Sequence record: PV775410.1
Length of the DNA: 45,137 bases
Direction: 5' to 3' (one strand)
From: Escherichia phage vB_Eco_Sem3
Shown in pieces: positions 38,281-45,137 of the stretch. The notes beneath the pieces were generated by a model. It saw nothing but the letters and a program-made list of their open reading frames with translations, made no database searches and had not been told where the DNA came from. Position numbers and translations under genes: made by a program. Positions within the stretch are counted from its first letter, which is position 1, and each line of letters opens with the position of its first letter.

Positions 38281-38498
38281 TAGTTCACCTTAATAATTCT
38301 AGGTTGGTAAGAGTCAGCTTTTCTACGATTAGAGATAAACTTCTTTGCATCCCTTTCGGTGCAGAAGATAGCCTCTGTATCAGTATAGCCAATAGGCATC
38401 ATACAAGTGACCCATATTAAGCCTAATACTTTACGTTGCACTATGTAGAACTCTTGCCCGTGACTATTTAAACAGGTCTTGATTCTATATTTAGCCAT
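38280..38498 (-). CDS. Hypothetical protein, 72 aa
   Basis: RBS GGGAG; occupies the T7 gene 1.2 position but shows no similarity I can recognise. Confidence 0.5.
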   Translation of the reverse strand: MAKYRIKTCLNSHGQEFYIVQRKVLGLIWVTCMMPIGYTDTEAIFCTERDAKKFISNRRKADSYQPRIIKVN

Positions 38499-38501
38499 AA
38501 C

Positions 38502-38630
38502 TCAGAACTCCCACGCAGCGCGTTTAGATGCACGGTCACGGACAGGTTTATTCAGCTTCTTGCCTTTCTTCTGCCCTTCTTCCATGTCAAAACGGTTAGC
38601 TTTACGGGTCATCTTCTCAAAGTTACGCAT
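38502..38630 (-). CDS. T7 gp1.1-like small basic protein (42 aa)
   Basis: MRNFEKMTRKANRFDMEEGQKKGKKLNKPVRDRASKRAAWEF closely parallels T7 gp1.1 (MRNFEKMTKRSNRNARDFEATKGRKLNKTKRDRSHKRSWEGQ, from memory). Confidence 0.7.
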   Translation of the reverse strand: MRNFEKMTRKANRFDMEEGQKKGKKLNKPVRDRASKRAAWEF

Positions 38631-38656
38631 GGTTAAATCTCCAAAGTAAGTTAGTC

Positions 38657-38677
38657 TTATCTATACTGTCCGGTAAA
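38657..38677 (-). promoter_or_regulatory. Phage RNAP promoter variant (TATACTGTC core, CCGGT class)
   Basis: Minus strand reads ATTTACCGGACAGTATAGATAAG; immediately 3' of a palindrome on the transcribed strand. Confidence 0.5.
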
Positions 38678-38683
38678 TACGAA

Positions 38684-38699
38684 GTCTCACATGTGAGAC
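38684..38699. repeat. Perfect palindrome GTCTCACATGTGAGAC (copy 5)
   Basis: Read directly; 6 nt from the promoter at 38657-38677. Confidence 0.8.
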
Positions 38700-38841
38700 A
38701 ACCTAGATCTGCCCTTCCTCTAAGTAGTAATAAGAGGAAGGAAGGAGGTAATAGGTATTCCTAGATAACCTATATAGCCTTTAATACCTATTACTTCCTT
38801 TTATATCCTTTATCTTCCCTTTTCTTTCCTGTCTCCGACGG

Positions 38842-38864
38842 CTATCCTATAGTGTCCGGTAAAT
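38842..38864 (-). promoter_or_regulatory. Phage RNAP promoter, CCGGT class (first promoter after the RNAP gene)
   Basis: Minus strand reads ATTTACCGGACACTATAGGATAG. Confidence 0.65.
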
Positions 38865-38866
38865 AA

Positions 38867-38882
38867 GTCTCACATGTGAGAC
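38867..38882. repeat. Perfect palindrome GTCTCACATGTGAGAC (copy 6)
   Basis: Read directly; 2 nt from the promoter at 38842-38864. Confidence 0.8.
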
Positions 38883-38914
38883 ACTTTATGTTAATGAAAT
38901 GTTACCGGTAGTAG

Positions 38915-38947
38915 GTAAAAGAAAAGGCCACTCCCGAAGGAATGGCC
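38915..38947 (-). terminator. Intrinsic terminator downstream of the RNAP gene (early terminator)
   Basis: Minus strand reads GGCCATTCCTTCGGGAGTGGCC followed by TTTTCTTTTAC. Confidence 0.7.
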
Positions 38948-38955
38948 TATTAATA

Positions 38956-41583
38956 TTATGCGAAGCAATAGTCAGATACTAAGATTTCGTTAAGGTCAAA
39001 TTCTCCTTGCTCTGGCACTTGGATTCCGGTGTCTACTAACCAGCGTTCTTCATGCTCATCTAACAGGCTTTGCAGGGCATTACGACCTTGATACATCTTC
39101 ACCATTTCTGCCCTTAAGCTATCCCGCAGGTCTGCTGTACGGCCTGCATGAGTACCAAAGGAATCATGGATGACTGCAATAGAGGTAATACCTTTATCCA
39201 CTAAAGCACACACCGTTAGAATCAGGTGGCTAGCATCATGACCATGCACGAAGTTAGGAGCAGCCGCACCCATCATGGCTGTTTCATCCACTACATCAGT
39301 CTCAATCTGTAGACTCATCTTGATTTCACCCATCAAGCAAGTGGATACGCGTAGCATGTCGGTAGCCATTATCTTTTGTTGCAAGATGAAACCAGTAGGT
39401 AAGGTGTACTCTAGCCCTTCGTTTCTTTTAGCTGCGAAGCGTGCAAGCTGGCGAATCATTTTCATCGCCACTATAGGAGCTTTAACAACCTCAGAGATAG
39501 AAGGCCAGATTAAAGCTGTCATATAGTTATAAGCTGCGCTAGGTGTCAGGCTGTCCTTACGGTCATTATCAAAAGGGTGTACAGGATTGGCGGTACGCCC
39601 TTCCGCAATAGCTCGTTGGGCCTCTTTTTCTTCCAAATCAACGATATAATCAATCACTGATTCACGGCAGGTTAGACGTGTGCTGCCATAAGGTAGTGTC
39701 ATTACGGGCTTTTTGGTCAATCCGCGAGTGATTCCTATCATATCCCACGCATTAGCCATGCTACGCAGTTCTGCACCTGTAAGTGTGACGCTCCCAGATG
39801 TGAAAGTCACTGCATCGTCTGCATTCATGTAGGCGTAATTCTTCTGGATAACAACCTGCGCAACCGCGCCATAAATATCTTGAGGGAAGTCAGAAGGCTT
39901 AAGGTTTACTGCTTTCGCACCTACTTCATCGCGTAACATCGCGCTATAGTGCTGGATACCAGAGCAACTACCGTCTTGATGGACGGGTAGATGCGTCATG
40001 AATTGGTCTTGCGTGCCTTCATCCAGTGCATCCAGATAACGCGCATATTCAAAGCACCATGCAAGGAAGCCGTAAGGGGAATCAGCATTTACCCATTGAG
40101 TGAAGGTCAGCGGATCGGCTGCAATGTCGCGGCACATGTCTTGAAATTCGCCATCCAGCACGTTAGAGGTGCGCACGTCAAAAGTTTTCTTATCCCAACC
40201 CCAGTTATTCGCCCCGTTCACCAAAAACCACTTAAGCGCCTCAGCGCTATCAAGACGCTGCCCTTCGGTAAAACGGAGCAATGCCTTGCCTAAGTCGTTT
40301 GATTGCGGCGAGAGCGTGCTAGATTGCGCATAAACGCGTGAACGGCTATCCAGTGCATATACAAAATAAATCGCGTCAAACTGGCTGTATTTACGGGCCT
40401 GTCCTACCATGCGGACGGTCGCCGCCGACTTGCTGCCGCGCTTAGTCTCAGCGGTATACAGCTTAGTACATTCACCCTTCCAGTTGATGAAGGCCTGCCA
40501 TTGCTCCGGTGTTAGCATCTCTTTCAATTCACGGCCTCGCAGGTGCTGGAACTCTAACGGCACTGGATTAGCTGGCTTGTTCTCACGGTCGATGAGTGGT
40601 TTAAAGGAAGGCACACCATAACCAAGGTCGAGACGGATAACGTCCTCTACTACCTGCAAAACCTCTTTATTAACCTGCCACTTAGTCGCCTGCAAAGCGT
40701 TAACAGCCTTGTAAACCGCTGGCATTTGCTTTTTGGTCAGCTTGCGGACGTGCTCGCGGTTTCCTTTAACCAGACGAATACGACTCGCCACCTTCTCGGT
40801 ATGGAAGCCACCATTAAACGGAGAAACCCACGGACGAGGAGGAATAACGCAAGGCGCATAGGCTGGACTCAGCTGAGCTACGTGCTCTTTAAATGCAGTT
40901 ATCCATTCACCCACATGTTCGCTAGTCTGTAAGTAGTAAACGCCATGCTTGCCACCATTAGTGCGCAAGGTGCGAAGAAAGACAGGCTGACCATTGAAGA
41001 ATACACTATTTTCCAGTATTTCTAGCAAGGTCATACCTATTTGTAGCAAGGTATCTTTAGGCCACGCCTCCCAGCGAGAGAAATCAGCGTCACGGTCAGC
41101 CACTGACTTCTCAGCCACGACCGCTACGTTGTGCGCATGGCGATATGATTTAGTCTTACTTGCCTTAAGTGACTTCTTAACTTTCTCAAAGTATTTGGCG
41201 GCGTGACCTTCCAGCTTGCTAAAACGTACTTGGTCCTCAATGCGGTCAGCTACATTCATGGCTATAGCCTGCAAGGTTACATCCGTGTTCAGCATATCCA
41301 TAACGATTTTCATCGTGATATATGCTGCCACTTCGTTTTCTACGCAGTTAATGAAAGCTAATGCACGCGGTGCACGGCCTCTTTTACCTTCATACTCTTC
41401 CTTGTATGCCTGAATACCTTCAGCCATTGGCGCGATTAACTCGGACAATAAGCGGCGATTCCAGGCCGTGTCTGATTCATTACCGGATGCAATCTGGCGT
41501 TGTTGGTCCGCTTCAAAGCGACGGATACCGCCGTTAAACATTTCTTCTTCAAGTTGAAGTTGAATAGCGTGTAGGTCTTGCAT
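38956..41583 (-). CDS. Single-subunit DNA-dependent RNA polymerase, SP6-type
   Basis: 875 aa; N-terminus [31 protein letters not shown]… and catalytic motifs (…[15 protein letters not shown]…, …VHDSFGTHA…) match SP6 RNAP as I recall it; RBS AGGAG. Confidence 0.95.
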
Positions 41584-41646
41584 CTTGTTTACTCCTAGTG
41601 AAAGAAACCTTAATAGGTGACACCTAAGAAGATGCCACCGATAAGG

Positions 41647-42570
41647 TTACTTAGTTAATTCTTCTACTGCCTCAGAGATTAAGGGCCATGCTTCATGGCC
41701 TTCGCCGTATCCTAGCTTAACCAGTTCGCGGCGTGCCTTGTTAACTGCTGTTTTCTTCGTTGCCTCCTCAGCGCTTAAACCTAAGCGAGCATAGAAGCAG
41801 GAAGATTTGAATTGCGGCAGCATAGGCGCGGCTGCTTTCTTGCTTTCGCGTGCGCTGCTTAAGGAGGCAATGCGGTCATTAGCTGCCTGTAATTGCTCGG
41901 TCAGTGCTTTAATTTGTGCCAGAAGGCCAGCAATAGCGGCACTCTCGGTGTTAGCCGTGTTATCCAGTGGCGCGGCCTTAGGCGCTTCCGGCTTGCTTTC
42001 ATCTTCCCACGGTGCGGATTCGTCGTTACCCGACTCACTTGCTGGCGGCACACTTTGTAATTCCTCTTTCGCCTTCTCTAAGATGAAATCCTCAAAGGTT
42101 GCATGTCCTTGCATAGTTTCTGCGGCCTCAGTCGCATTCTCCTGCGGTTTTACCGCCTCAGACTTAGATTGTACCGTCTCGGCCTTTGTCTCTTTCTTAG
42201 GATCAATCAGGGCGTTTACGGCGTTAGTGTCCAGCTTGCCCTCTGCGGCGAGTTCTGCGGCCTTCTCCATGATCATATTTTCATCAGCGAAAGGAACAAG
42301 CGCCAGCATTACACGCATAGCCACACCTTTAAAGCGTTCGTCTCCTTCAAAGACACGGGCTACACTCATCAGCTTGTAGCATTGTGCTTTCTTGATGCCG
42401 AACTCTGATTCTACATAAGCTAAAAAGTCTTTTTGACCTTCGAAATCACCGCGTAATTCATTCAGACAAGCGCCAACTTTGATGTAAGAAGTGCCGATAT
42501 TGTCTAAGTGCTGCTTGATTTCAGCGGTTGCAGCTTCACGAACAGACAGAAGGATGTTTTCAGTAGTCAT
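41647..42570 (-). CDS. Early protein of unknown function, 307 aa
   Basis: Start at MTTENIL (RBS AAGGTGA); N-terminal globular region, long acidic Ala/Pro/Glu-rich linker, small C-terminal domain; occupies the T7 gene 0.7 position but has no kinase motifs. Confidence 0.6.
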   Translation of the reverse strand: MTTENILLSVREAATAEIKQHLDNIGTSYIKVGACLNELRGDFEGQKDFLAYVESEFGIKKAQCYKLMSVARVFEGDERFKGVAMRVMLALVPFADENMIMEKAAELAAEGKLDTNAVNALIDPKKETKAETVQSKSEAVKPQENATEAAETMQGHATFEDFILEKAKEELQSVPPASESGNDESAPWEDESKPEAPKAAPLDNTANTESAAIAGLLAQIKALTEQLQAANDRIASLSSARESKKAAAPMLPQFKSSCFYARLGLSAEEATKKTAVNKARRELVKLGYGEGHEAWPLISEAVEELTK

Positions 42571-42631
42571 ATTAATCACCTTATAGTGTAAGTAAATATC
42601 ACATAGCCCACATAGGCAGGCTATAGGCTAG

Positions 42632-42859
42632 TTACTTGATGTAATGCCACGTTTCTATAAATGCATCTTTGCTAATGGCGCATTCCGTGCCGTTAGGTGC
42701 AATGTATTCTACAAGCCCACCTCTTACACAAAGGTAATTACCGCCTTCCTTTCTTAGTTTGCGTTTAGCTTTATCAAATAAGAACTCACGGTAAAGATGA
42801 TAGGAGCACCAGCTTAAGCCAATAAGAGCAAATGCCATAATGATGCTATCTAAATCCAT
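42632..42859 (-). CDS. Early small membrane protein, 75 aa
   Basis: RBS AGGAG; N-terminal TM helix IIMAFALIGLSWCSY, then a basic soluble domain. Confidence 0.55.
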   Translation of the reverse strand: MDLDSIIMAFALIGLSWCSYHLYREFLFDKAKRKLRKEGGNYLCVRGGLVEYIAPNGTECAISKDAFIETWHYIK

Positions 42860-42922
42860 AGTCTTAACTCCTAGTAAGTGAAAGTTTAATCAGGCGCTAC
42901 CGTAGCAACGCCTTGTTAAGCC

Positions 42923-42945
42923 TTCTCTTATAGTGTCAGCTAAAT
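42923..42945 (-). promoter_or_regulatory. Degenerate phage promoter-like sequence (GTCAGCT variant)
   Basis: Minus strand reads ATTTAGCTGACACTATAAGAGAA; lies upstream of the RNAP gene, where a phage promoter would not be expected to act early. Confidence 0.3.
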
Positions 42946-43051
42946 AGTTTGTATGTAGTACCTAGCACTTCCTCACGAATCTGAGCGAATCGTAGGGAAC
43001 ACTTCAGGGTTACACCGTCTGAAAAGATGAAGTTGTATAGCTTTTCCATTC

Positions 43052-43408
43052 TTATTCCTCTTCTTCTTTTTCTAAATATTCGGCAGAGTTGACGTATTCA
43101 ACAATCATATACTGAACACGTTCCCATAGATCAATTGTGAGTTGCTCATAGATACGGGCTTGCAATACTACGGTTACATCCTTAGTGTCTGGCATCAGGC
43201 CGGAGTCTTCGAAGAAATGATCAATTCCTTCACTCGCCATCACGGAGAAGATGTCAGCATAATAGATTGGTACAGCACTATCCGCCGCATCATGGATTGC
43301 ATCATGTGCGTTATCAATACAATCAATAGCATCATTCCAGATACGTTCAACTAATGCAGCATGAGCAGTGTTGTAAACCTGAGAGTAAGTCATATTAGAC
43401 ATAGCCAT
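43052..43408 (-). CDS. ocr: Ocr-like DNA mimic, anti-restriction protein (T7 gp0.3 homolog)
   Basis: Start at MAMSNMTY (RBS GAGGA); …[43 protein letters not shown]…[15 protein letters not shown]… is near-identical in blocks to T7 Ocr as I recall it; acidic C-terminus. Confidence 0.85.
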
Positions 43409-43759
43409 GTTGTTAATCCTCATTTAGTTAGTTAGGTTACATTATAGGAGACTCAAGAGAATCCCCTAGGTTTAACCTATCCAGACTAAGAAGCTTCTAT
43501 CCAAATTGTTAAAGAGCGTGGCTTGTGCCTTGATAGGCTGACTAGTGCCAGCCTTTACTTTAAATCAGTGAGAAACAGCCATACCACTCTTTGAAGCTAG
43601 ATTGGTTTTCCAGTGGTAATATTTCAAGTTTACCATTGACCATACGTTCTACACAAATTAAACCTTTCATGATAATTACCTTAGTTAGTTAGCCTATCAA
43701 GACACAAACCGTATTGTTAAAGAGCGGGATGTTTAAAGACGTCGCCGTCTTGATGCTTA

Positions 43760-43788
43760 ATGTAACCTTGTATGCCGTGGCTGTCAAT
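43760..43788 (-). promoter_or_regulatory. Putative host sigma70 early promoter P2 (TTGACA-N17-TACATT)
   Basis: Minus strand reads TTGACAgccacggcatacaaggtTACATT; followed by a hairpin (AAGACGGCGACGTCTT) and the conserved GCTCTTTAACAAT box. Confidence 0.5.
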
Positions 43789-43795
43789 AGTTAAT

Positions 43796-44005
43796 TTAAA
43801 CTTTATTGCTATTTACTTCTTCCCACTCCAAGGAGTGTTGATTCAGGCTGTTAATCACTCGTTTGTGAGATAACTTGCTTTCAAACTGAAGATAAAACAT
43901 CTCAGTACCATCGTTGAGGTTGTACGTCTGACATTCTGCCTTGTACAAATCGCAGATAGCTTTAGCCGATTTATTGCAATCCGTGTAAATCTCATGTTTA
44001 AACAT
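43796..44005 (-). CDS. Early hypothetical protein, 69 aa
   Basis: RBS AAGGAG; ATG overlaps the stop of the upstream ORF. Confidence 0.55.
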   Translation of the reverse strand: MFKHEIYTDCNKSAKAICDLYKAECQTYNLNDGTEMFYLQFESKLSHKRVINSLNQHSLEWEEVNSNKV

Positions 44006-44174
44006 TGGTTAGCTCCTTCATCAGGTCACGTTTCTGGTTAACTGTATCGGTCCAACCTTCGTTCAGAAAGCGGTGATACAAGGCTAACTCGTCATCTGTA
44101 AGCAATTCGTTGTTACGAATCATGTAGCATAGCAGAGTAAAGATAGCGGACAGTTCACGGTTAGTTAGAGTCAT
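43998..44174 (-). CDS. Early hypothetical protein, 58 aa (MTLTNRELSAIFTLLCYMIRNNELLTDDELALYHRFLNEGW…)
   Basis: Hand-called; RBS GGAGG; ATGA overlap with the upstream ORF. Confidence 0.5.
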   Translation of the reverse strand: MTLTNRELSAIFTLLCYMIRNNELLTDDELALYHRFLNEGWTDTVNQKRDLMKELTNV

Positions 44175-44270
44175 GATAAAGCCTCCACAAACTCAGCATA
44201 AGACAAAGGCTCTTCTCCTCTCACTAATGCGTTATAGTAATAGGCTTTATACAGTTTTTCGTAATTCATA
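44172..44270 (-). CDS. Early hypothetical peptide, 32 aa (MNYEKLYKAYYYNALVRGEEPLSYAEFVEALS)
   Basis: Hand-called; RBS GAGGAA; first ORF downstream of promoter P1. Confidence 0.35.
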
Positions 44271-44390
44271 GCTAATTCCTCATTCAATAAGTAATTAACC
44301 ACGGCATACATAGGTTACACTAAGCAAATTGTTAAAGAGCAAGGTAACTTAGTTACCTACCGTTTGGCTATGTTGCCTCCCGATGACTGT

Positions 44391-44419
44391 AATGTACTAC
44401 CAGCTATTACCTATGTCAA
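44391..44419 (-). promoter_or_regulatory. Putative host sigma70 early promoter P1 (TTGACA-N17-TACATT)
   Basis: Minus strand reads TTGACAtaggtaatagctggtagTACATT; followed by a perfect palindrome GGTAACTAAGTTACC and the GCTCTTTAACAAT box. Confidence 0.5.
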
Positions 44420-44486
44420 CACTAAATTTCACTAAGATAGATTATTTATGTGATACATGTCACAACTACTAAGGTAAACCTAGGTT

Positions 44487-44502
44487 GTCTAACATGTGAG
44501 AC
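44487..44502. repeat. Imperfect copy of the intergenic palindrome (GTCTAACATGTGAGAC, copy 7)
   Basis: Read directly; one mismatch to the perfect palindrome; lies between the ACTAAG repeat array and promoter P1. Confidence 0.6.
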
Positions 44503-44647
44503 TAAGGAAGAGCAACAGATACAGAGCTAGGATAGGCTAGGTTGGCTAGGTTTCTGGTGTTCCTCCTACTGCATCTTATTACTATTCTCTTCTTTAGCGG
44601 TCTACCGACCGCGACCTAATGGCATCTTACATGCTTGCATGTGCAAT

Positions 44648-44787
44648 CACTAAGAGAAGACACTAAGACTTACTAAGGTACACTACTAAGCTATTACTAA
44701 GATAAGCACTAAGGCTTTAACTAGGGTAGTCCACTAAGGTTAACCTAAGCTATCCATCAAGTAATAGCATAAGGTAGTAACTAAGGT
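44648..44787. repeat. Array of short ACTAAG(G) repeats next to the terminal repeat
   Basis: At least eight copies of (C/T)ACTAAG(G) at irregular 10-25 bp spacing; four more inside the terminal repeat itself. Confidence 0.6.
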
Positions 44788-45137
44788 ACACGTCAGGCTT
44801 GTGAGTGGAGCGCTAGCGAAACGAACAGATAGCCCACGCCCTCCCACCCTGTCAAACGCTCAGGAATGGCCCTGAATAGCCTCAGGAATGCACTAAGCGG
44901 CTTCACTAAGGCAATCACCTTGTCCACCACTAAGCCATCCCTAGGCCGTCCTAGGCGCTCTCCAGCGTTCCACCTTGCTAGTACATGAGCAAAGACTAGG
45001 CTGTACCAGCTAACTAGTACGGCCTGCCCTTGTGTACTACTAAGCTAGTACAAGGAGTACATCAGCCCTGCCCCGTCGAAGACGGATTTCCTCAGGCCAC
45101 CCTATGGGGGCAACCCGGCGAGGGCGAGGAAGCAGAG

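Follow-up and report, generated by a model that had tools for sequence, protein, structure and literature searches.

A T7-type ocr allele in the early region of an SP6-like Vectrevirus and its probable exchange as a gene-sized cassette

An ocr gene in an SP6-group genome

The window analysed here is the whole 45,137-nucleotide stretch of Escherichia phage vB_Eco_Sem3 (PV775410.1), and near its right end, on the minus strand, lies a gene of the ocr (gene 0.3) family. The long ORFs of the window are all on the minus strand and the GC skew is negative throughout. A 2.5-kb query taken from the right end was 99.9% identical to Klebsiella phage vB_Ka_Sem4 (PV775411, 45,205 bp) with matching coordinates, and it also matched about 100 related phage records. 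Sem4 is assigned to Vectrevirus, a genus of the subfamily Molineuxvirinae, and the genome of the window was found to be collinear with SP6 by blastn. The window is a complete K1E/K1-5-like (SP6-group) Vectrevirus genome in reverse complement, and its right end is the conventional left end, the first into the cell. The coding features of the locus and of its setting are:

38502-38630, minus strand: ORF of the gp1.1 family, 42 aa (PF08200, Phage_1_1; E=8.2e-16, residues 1-41, full 40-residue domain)
38956-41583, minus strand: single-subunit RNA polymerase (RNAP) of SP6/K1E type, matching PF00940 and PF14700
42936-43049, minus strand: conserved 'gene 4' of 37 aa, directly 3' of ocr (PHROG 11746, E=1.5e-29); downstream flank of the cassette
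43052-43408, minus strand: ocr CDS of 118 codons and a stop; T7-type allele, encoding the DNA-mimic anti-restriction protein Ocr
43417-43421, minus strand: Shine-Dalgarno GAGGA, 8 nt 5' of the ocr ATG, read from the sequence

The RNAP is 85.6% identical to that of SP6, 98-99% to those of K1E and K1-5 and 32-36% to that of T7. Ten minus-strand sites match the SP6-like promoter consensus TAGGTGACACTATAGAAG with at most 3 mismatches, where 0.05 would be expected by chance, and seven of these ten are the identical 18-mer TACTGGACACTATAGAAG. Together with the PF08200 match, these results uphold the initial annotation, which had read the polymerase and promoters as SP6-type and the ORF at 38502-38630 as gp1.1. 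An exact search for the 18-mer in the fetched loci, which are mostly early regions, returned no copy, and the specificity segment of SP6 differs.

The minus-strand ORF of ocr ends at 43052, stop codon included, and translation from the ATG at 43408 yields a 118-aa protein beginning MAMSNMTY, with N-terminus and length identical to those of T7 Ocr. We take this ATG as the right start because GAGGA lies 8 nt upstream of it and because the alternative in-frame ATG at 43423, which overlaps GAGGA, is without a Shine-Dalgarno of its own. The choice agrees with the GenBank CDS of the near-identical phage Sem4. The GAGGA motif aligns with the ribosome-binding site GAGGT of T7 gene 0.3, and the two genes resemble each other in having this site together with a boxA-containing leader.

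The encoded protein is clearly a homologue of Ocr (T7 gp0.3). Against the Pfam family PF08684 'DNA mimic ocr' it scored 142.1 bits, with the cut-off at 25 (E=8.7e-42; positions 1-97 of the 101 in the profile). It also matched PHROG 2568 'ocr-like anti-restriction' with E=2e-46, and phmmer aligned residues 1-117 without gaps to the T7 Ocr chain 1s7z_A (E=1.7e-40). The protein and T7 Ocr are 65% identical along their full length, and BLASTP of the 118-aa protein against T7 gp0.3 confirmed the relationship with 68.6% over a 102-aa alignment. The AlphaFold2 monomer model, built with 50 homologues (pLDDT 88.3, pTM 0.80), contains four helices at residues 8-25, 35-45, 50-57 and 78-117, the last of which is the long C-terminal helix as in the Ocr fold. 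When the model was compared with PDB by Foldseek, eight T7 Ocr chains were retrieved (TM 0.79-0.89, rmsd 1.5-2.0 Å), and at E<1 there were no matches besides T7 Ocr chains. PF08684, PHROG 2568, the 1s7z alignment and Foldseek thus all bear out the first reading of 43052-43408 as a T7-type Ocr.

The four-helix fold, predicted for the window protein, and a pI of about 4 are common to it and T7 Ocr (PDB 1S7Z, PF08684). Two Ocr subunits form a dimer with the shape of a bent DNA segment of about 24 bp, and the targets of Ocr are type I restriction-modification (R-M) enzymes and the BrxX/PglX protein of BREX; the window protein would be expected to dimerise and to bind these targets. Its proposed action matches that of ArdA, an acidic DNA-mimic dimer of plasmids and transposons that blocks type I R-M (PMC2731889); ArdA, however, belongs to an unrelated sequence family with a different fold, and no similarity between it and the window protein was detected. 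Considering all of these features, the ORF is very probably a functional member of the gene 0.3 family, an ocr gene situated in the early region of an SP6/K1E-like Vectrevirus.

The presence of Ocr in this phage is already known from both annotation and literature. It is reported for the phage in the Sem phage paper of 2026 (PMC13005862), the database record of Sem4 already labels the gene Ocr, and SP6 gp5 is named a putative anti-restriction protein in a passage of PMC4837284 that credits Scholl et al. 2004. What appears mildly novel is the sharply bounded two-allele polymorphism of ocr in Vectrevirus and the existence of a charge-reduced sub-lineage.

Candidate promoters, boxA elements and leader of ocr

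The ocr gene of the window lies 1.7 kb from the leading end as the fifth or sixth ORF, whereas T7 gene 0.3 is the first gene, 0.9 kb in. It is situated upstream of all SP6-like promoter matches on the coding strand, the highest of which is at 42925-42942. The following elements were found 5' of the gene:

43424-43489, minus strand: long leader hairpin, immediately 5' of the ocr ribosome-binding site
43505-43517, minus strand: rrn-type boxA GCTCTTTAACAAT, in the ocr leader, preceded by a hairpin at 43535-43554
43713-43725, minus strand: boxA copy 2, 34 nt 3' of a sigma-70-like promoter
43759-43787, minus strand: sigma-70-like promoter TTGACA-17-TACATT (10/12 consensus), nearest candidate upstream of ocr
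44328-44340, minus strand: boxA copy 3, just 3' of a hairpin at 44342-44358 and downstream of the first early promoter
44391-44419, minus strand: sigma-70-like promoter TTGACA-17-TACATT (10/12 consensus), leftmost candidate early promoter

The promoter assignments are tentative, since they are consensus matches only and the sigma-70 and terminator scan gave site counts that were not above those of shuffled sequence. The boxA 13-mer is present in three exact coding-strand copies in the window, a number reached in none of 100 shuffles, and every copy is preceded by a GC-rich hairpin. It is identical to the boxA sequence of E. coli rrnB (PMC2176067). On the transcribed strand, downstream of a candidate promoter, the boxA sequence GCTCTTTAACAA is a predicted antiterminator element. 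In T7 the same 13-mer occupies 813-825, in the interval from promoter A3 to gene 0.3; each of the 13 fetched loci has it in the early region, and the ocr leader is alignable among T7, SP6, K1-5 and the window.

Folding of the RNA of 43409-43570 (minus strand) gave -48 kcal/mol with z=-3.9, and none of 200 shuffles was as stable. The long leader hairpin at 43424-43489 lies where we take T7 to have R0.3, its RNase III processing site. An Rfam scan of 38400-45137 at E<=1 yielded no real family; its only match, below threshold and to a miRNA model, covered 42865-42936 on either strand and points to a hairpin there.

From this arrangement we propose that transcription of ocr is probably begun by the RNA polymerase of the host, at sigma-70 promoters in the end of the genome that is first into the cell, so that the gene would be expressed early. 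The early transcript would run through a leader carrying the rrn-type boxA and the processing hairpin, and its product, a small acidic protein, is predicted to take the T7 Ocr fold.

Distribution of ocr alleles and exchange of the gene

The initial annotation had seen a mosaic early region in the co-occurrence of an SP6-like polymerase with T7-like genes 0.3 and 1.1. The argument from these three genes falls away, while mosaicism itself is retained at ocr on the strength of the allele matrix and the breakpoints given below. An SP6-type RNAP together with Ocr and gp1.1 is the canonical layout of the SP6 group. The annotated products of SP6 include gp5 (1637-1996), which is ocr-like, and gp9, which is gp1.1-like, in matching order relative to the RNAP, and in K1-5 and K1E the product gp3 is annotated as ocr-like at the position found in the window, followed by a 37-aa 'gene 4'. 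As SP6, K1-5 and K1E carry the identical layout, the combination of RNAP, Ocr and gp1.1 is without mosaic signal on its own. The use of gp1.1 as evidence of mosaicism was rejected as well, because SP6 has its own gp1.1 and that of the window is closer to it (74% identity to SP6 gp9) than to T7 gp1.1 (56%).

The closest known counterparts of the gene share its locus and differ in the allele. SP6 gp5 (Zindervirus) lies, like the window gene, after small early ORFs and before a 37-38-aa 'gene 4', gp6/gp7 and the RNAP, and it has the T7-type allele class and the phage subfamily in common with the window; its identity to T7 Ocr (78%), however, exceeds that to the window protein (60-67%), and it retains 34 acidic residues. 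The gp3 proteins of K1-5 and K1E, the type members of Vectrevirus, share genus, locus and Pfam family with the window protein, and the flanks of their genes are 90-100% identical to those of the window, with the 'gene 4' homologue following ocr in K1E, K1-5 and SP6 as well. Yet they are only 47% identical to the window protein, comprise 108-110 aa with about 9 fewer residues in the C-terminal helix, and are 80-83% identical to K1F gp0.3.

In the phage collection, 75 records carry an RNAP at least 95% identical to that of the window. The window ocr allele was found at 90% identity or more in 44 records of the same collection and the K1-5 allele in 24, with a few more of the latter at 85-89%. 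The allele-carrying records and the 75 RNAP records were compared as totals; if the two sets are the same phages, ocr is present in essentially every member of the genus.

Among the proteins shared with T7, Ocr stands at the top with 68.6% identity, followed by the C-terminal DUF3310 part of the gp1.7-like kinase (64%) and gp1.1, whereas the core proteins reach 19-35%. In blastn against T7 there were two significant matches, of which ocr was the strongest and the other was a short stretch in the DNA polymerase gene. The comparison with SP6 gave the reverse order, with core proteins 80-93% identical and Ocr 60-67%. We then compiled the pairwise identities of Ocr and RNAP for eight phages. The window and K1E have RNAPs that are 98% identical and Ocr proteins that are 47% identical, and for the window and K1-5 the values are 99% and 47%. 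T7 and SP6, on the other hand, share 78% identity in Ocr and 35% in RNAP, as do K1E and K1F with 83% in Ocr and 35% in RNAP. The T7-type class of Ocr comprises T7, SP6 and the window, and the K1F-type class comprises K1F, K1E, K1-5 and vB_EcoP_R, so that the T7-like and the SP6-like subfamilies are both represented in each allele class.

The limits of the divergent segment coincide with the gene. From 43800 down to the ATG the window and K1-5 agree at 90-100% of nucleotides, over 43404-43066 at 35-65%, and identity to K1-5 and K1E is regained at 92-100% from the poly-Glu tail (about 43066) downward. These comparisons show ocr to be a gene-sized cassette with breakpoints at the two ends of the CDS, namely the start codon and the poly-Glu tail. 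The K1F-type proteins form a continuum of identities from 100% down to 84%, which spans the 44-45-kb genomes of Vectrevirus and the 39-40-kb genomes of Kayfunavirus and relatives. Furthermore, two records that are both titled Vectrevirus T147P1 carry alternative ocr alleles. Judged by these patterns, ocr is horizontally exchanged, though this is not peculiar to the present phage, and homologous recombination in the conserved leader of ocr is a plausible way for the cassette to be swapped.

The age of the exchange can be gauged from divergence at synonymous sites. Between the window and T7 ocr these sites are saturated (pS 0.77), and the window gene is therefore not a recent copy of the T7 gene; between T7 and SP6 ocr they are not saturated (dS 0.95). 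Outside Vectrevirus, identity falls to only about 70% in the nearest relatives, whether these are taken from the phage collection or from a database of 5.8 billion proteins; among the 93 homologue clusters from that database, the range from 83% down to 74% identity to the window protein is empty. The synonymous saturation and the roughly 70% identity of the nearest outside relatives led us to reject a recent transfer from T7 itself, and the exchange that gave the window its allele is neither recent nor from T7.

The same saturation, which gives no sign of a recent transfer, also accords with vertical descent of the gene from the common ancestor of T7-like and SP6-like phages, its likeness to T7 Ocr being then due to DNA mimicry, which would constrain its sequence far more than those of other proteins. 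In keeping with such descent, the locus is syntenic in all phages examined and the boxA leader is alignable among T7, SP6, K1-5 and the window, and for these reasons the ocr locus as such is probably ancestral; identity in Ocr is, besides, concentrated in the functionally critical block 36-91. Vertical inheritance of the allele is nevertheless quite improbable. It would leave unexplained how phages with RNAPs 98-99% identical (the window versus K1E and K1-5) come to differ to 47% in Ocr between flanks of 90-100% identity, which breaks off exactly at the start codon and the poly-Glu tail, and how K1E and K1F or T7 and SP6 (dS 0.95) come to share 83% and 78% identity in Ocr while their RNAPs stand at about 35%. 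The K1F-type continuum, which at 85-100% identity crosses 39-40-kb and 44-45-kb genomes, and the differing alleles of the two Vectrevirus T147P1 records argue against it equally. Exchange of the gene at an old locus remains the reading that we favour, and the ocr swap offers a clean example of anti-defence gene exchange between two phage subfamilies.

Charge, selection and predicted activity of the window allele

The Ocr of the window contains 24 Asp+Glu and 5 Lys+Arg, with a net charge of -19 and a pI of 4.08. It thereby shows the large acidic excess by which Ocr imitates the phosphate backbone of DNA, though less markedly than T7 and SP6 Ocr, which contain 34 acidic and 6 basic residues with a net charge of -28. 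Typical T7-type proteins have 32-39 acidic residues and the close relatives within the clade of the window Ocr have 29-30. Among the 93 homologue clusters a count below 24 occurs only once, and when ranked together with the 93 cluster representatives the window protein comes second-lowest. Thirteen of the 34 acidic positions of T7 Ocr are lost; the changes include E64F and two reversals of charge, D96R and E113K.

The positions of these losses were compared with the mutagenesis of T7 Ocr by Roberts et al. 2012 (PMC3439906). In that study residues 59-91 were crucial to anti-restriction, and the regions 12-26, 25-35 and 92-99 could be neutralised individually, and the C-terminal tail deleted, with wild-type activity. 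According to that study, homologues have only about 15 acidic residues in common, and activity needs far fewer than 34. The same authors observed a mild defect in Mut7, in which 25-35 and 92-99 were neutralised together, and described partially discharged T7 Ocr mutants that were toxic or without anti-modification activity. On their map the lost residues D12, E16, D26, D29 and D32 fall in the Mut1 and Mut2 regions, D96, E98 and D99 in the Mut4 region, and E106, E107, E110 and E113 in the deletable tail. Twelve of the 13 lost positions therefore lie in regions that are individually dispensable in T7, and the thirteenth, E64F, is inside the critical block. This block (59-91) is identical to T7 at 28 of 33 positions and retains seven of its eight acidic residues (E59, D62, E66, D67, D73, D76 and E87), and the segment 48-63 is identical between the two proteins. 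In the BREX complex, E67 of Ocr forms a salt bridge to R1145 of BrxX (PMC11842806), and E67, in a numbering that counts Met1, is conserved in the window Ocr.

Within its clade the window gene is under strong purifying selection, with dN/dS values of 0.06-0.14 against three other Vectrevirus copies, at dS of up to 0.66. The anti-restriction activity of the allele is likely to be intact, to judge from the retained residues. By analogy with the T7 mutants, the activity could also be reduced or altered, given E64F in the critical block, the reversals D96R and E113K, and a combination of losses resembling that of Mut7.

Two other readings of the low charge have to be set against that of a working anti-restriction gene. 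Decay of the ORF into an ocr remnant that no longer functions is hardly credible. The loss of 10 net negative charges in comparison with the T7 and SP6 proteins could be taken as decay, but the ORF is full-length with its ribosome-binding site and start codon conserved, dN/dS is held at 0.06-0.14 across synonymous divergence of up to 0.66, the fold is predicted confidently (pLDDT 88.3) and the allele is carried by about 44 phage genomes at 90% identity or more. Less remote, though unlikely, is a functional shift, in which the lower charge (-19 against -28) alters the targets of the protein or hides it from Ocr-sensing defences such as PARIS, with its AriA; under such a shift anti-restriction could have been either kept or lost. 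The acidic content is indeed at the extreme low end of the 93 homologue clusters, with 13 of 34 positions lost and two reversed, and this low-charge variant is maintained by purifying selection. A second allele class coexists in the genus, as balancing or diversifying selection would predict, and a published study reports that PARIS binds Ocr at AriA pores of positive charge and that it reacts to unrelated proteins of negative charge as well (PMC11464382). Against the shift, the acidic losses are nearly all in individually dispensable regions, the critical block and the predicted fold are retained, and far fewer acidic residues than 34 are required in T7 Ocr, with about 15 conserved (Roberts et al.). 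The relatives with 29-30 acidic residues moreover confine the low count to a sub-branch, where it concerns mostly the variable C-terminal tail, which fits drift.

We regard it as doubtful, to a similar degree, that two diverged ocr alleles are kept at one Vectrevirus locus with the low-charge form as a PARIS-escape variant that retains anti-restriction. Were it so, the polymorphism would be driven by the systems that Ocr inhibits (type I R-M, BREX) or triggers (PARIS). As a natural Ocr of low charge, the window protein is also a possible probe of the charge needed for recognition by type I R-M, BREX and PARIS.

For the ocr of the window as a functional anti-restriction gene, resistance of the phage to type I R-M and BREX can reasonably be predicted from its homology to known Ocr. 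Like nearly all members of the genus, the phage probably arrives equipped against both systems, and such protection would bear on its host range and on its proposed use in biocontrol, as the paper describing the phage already states. The leading 5.7 kb contain none of the four type I sites that were searched (EcoKI, EcoBI, EcoAI and EcoR124I) and no copy of the BREX site GGTAAG, of which about 5 would be expected there (Poisson probability about 0.007, uncorrected for multiple tests). Over the genome as a whole type I sites occur in ordinary numbers, which gives the phage a need of protection: there are 5 EcoKI, 7 EcoBI, 4 EcoAI and 5 EcoR124I sites, and 39 copies of GGTAAG.

Leading end of the genome

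The end of the genome that enters the cell first (39399-45137, the leading 5.7 kb) was devoid of sites for the type I enzymes EcoKI, EcoBI, EcoAI and EcoR124I, and none of the 39 GGTAAG sites of E. coli BREX present in the genome fell within it, where about 5 would be expected (P about 0.007, uncorrected). The site-free leading end agrees with a shielding of the DNA that would enter ahead of the synthesis of Ocr, the homologue of the T7 gp0.3 DNA mimic.

The early region also carries a repeated motif on its coding strand:

43505-43517, 43713-43725 and 44328-44340, minus strand: three exact copies of the boxA 13-mer GCTCTTTAACAAT

Each of these copies is immediately preceded on its 5' side by a GC-rich hairpin, and the 13-mer is completely identical to the boxA antiterminator of E. 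coli rrnB. T7 has this 13-mer at 813-825, ahead of its gene 0.3, and 1-4 copies per early region were found in all the related phages fetched (SP6, K1E, K1-5, K1F, PM85 and others). Because boxA copies identical to that of rrnB recur in the window and in related phages, we suggest that NusB/S10 would render the early transcripts of host RNA polymerase resistant to termination.

Hairpins and promoter match around ocr

43424-43489, minus strand: long stable hairpin directly 5' of the ocr ribosome-binding site
42865-42936, both strands: putative hairpin or inverted repeat, located between genes 4 and 5
42925-42942: first match to an SP6-like phage promoter, TAGCTGACACTATAAGAG

The leader that holds the first hairpin can be aligned among the window, T7, SP6 and K1-5, and the position of the hairpin presumably corresponds to the R0.3 RNase III site in T7; a search of Rfam families gave no match to this hairpin. 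The second element was recognized through weak, sub-threshold matches to a miRNA-precursor model, which by their presence on both strands indicate a putative hairpin or inverted repeat, and it overlaps the promoter match.

Exchanged and T7-like modules

42632-42859, minus strand: gene 5, 75 aa
26053-26616, minus strand: gp1.7-like protein with a C-terminal DUF3310 domain

At the nucleotide level gene 5 shares 97-100% identity with its counterparts in K1E and vB_EcoP_R. In K1-5, where a different, shorter gene stands at this position, identity is only about 40%; judged by these comparisons, gene 5 is another swapped module besides ocr. When genome segments were ranked by their likeness to T7, Ocr came first and the DUF3310 part of the gp1.7-like protein second, this domain sharing 64% identity with T7 gp1.7 and 63% with its homologue in SP6. 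It is possibly a further exchanged module, or a highly constrained one.

Two records, OZ035788 and OZ035797, are both named Vectrevirus T147P1, yet their ocr alleles differ: one encodes a T7-type Ocr 93.6% identical to the window protein and the other a K1-5 type Ocr 100% identical to K1-5 gp3.

Gene annotation and genome ends

41647-42579, minus strand: uninterrupted 310-aa ORF with a GTG start
115-415 and 44829-45129: exact direct repeat of 301 bp near both window ends

The ORF showed full-length homology to SP6 gp7 (64% identity) and PHROG 4571, whereas the GenBank record of the near-identical Klebsiella phage Sem4 enters this region as two CDSs (41649-42371 and 42422-42571), probably an annotation split of one ORF. 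The repeat is what would be expected of the direct terminal repeat typical for T7/SP6-like genomes; as its copies are inset, the left by 114 bp and the right by 8 bp, the physical genome ends differ from those of the window.
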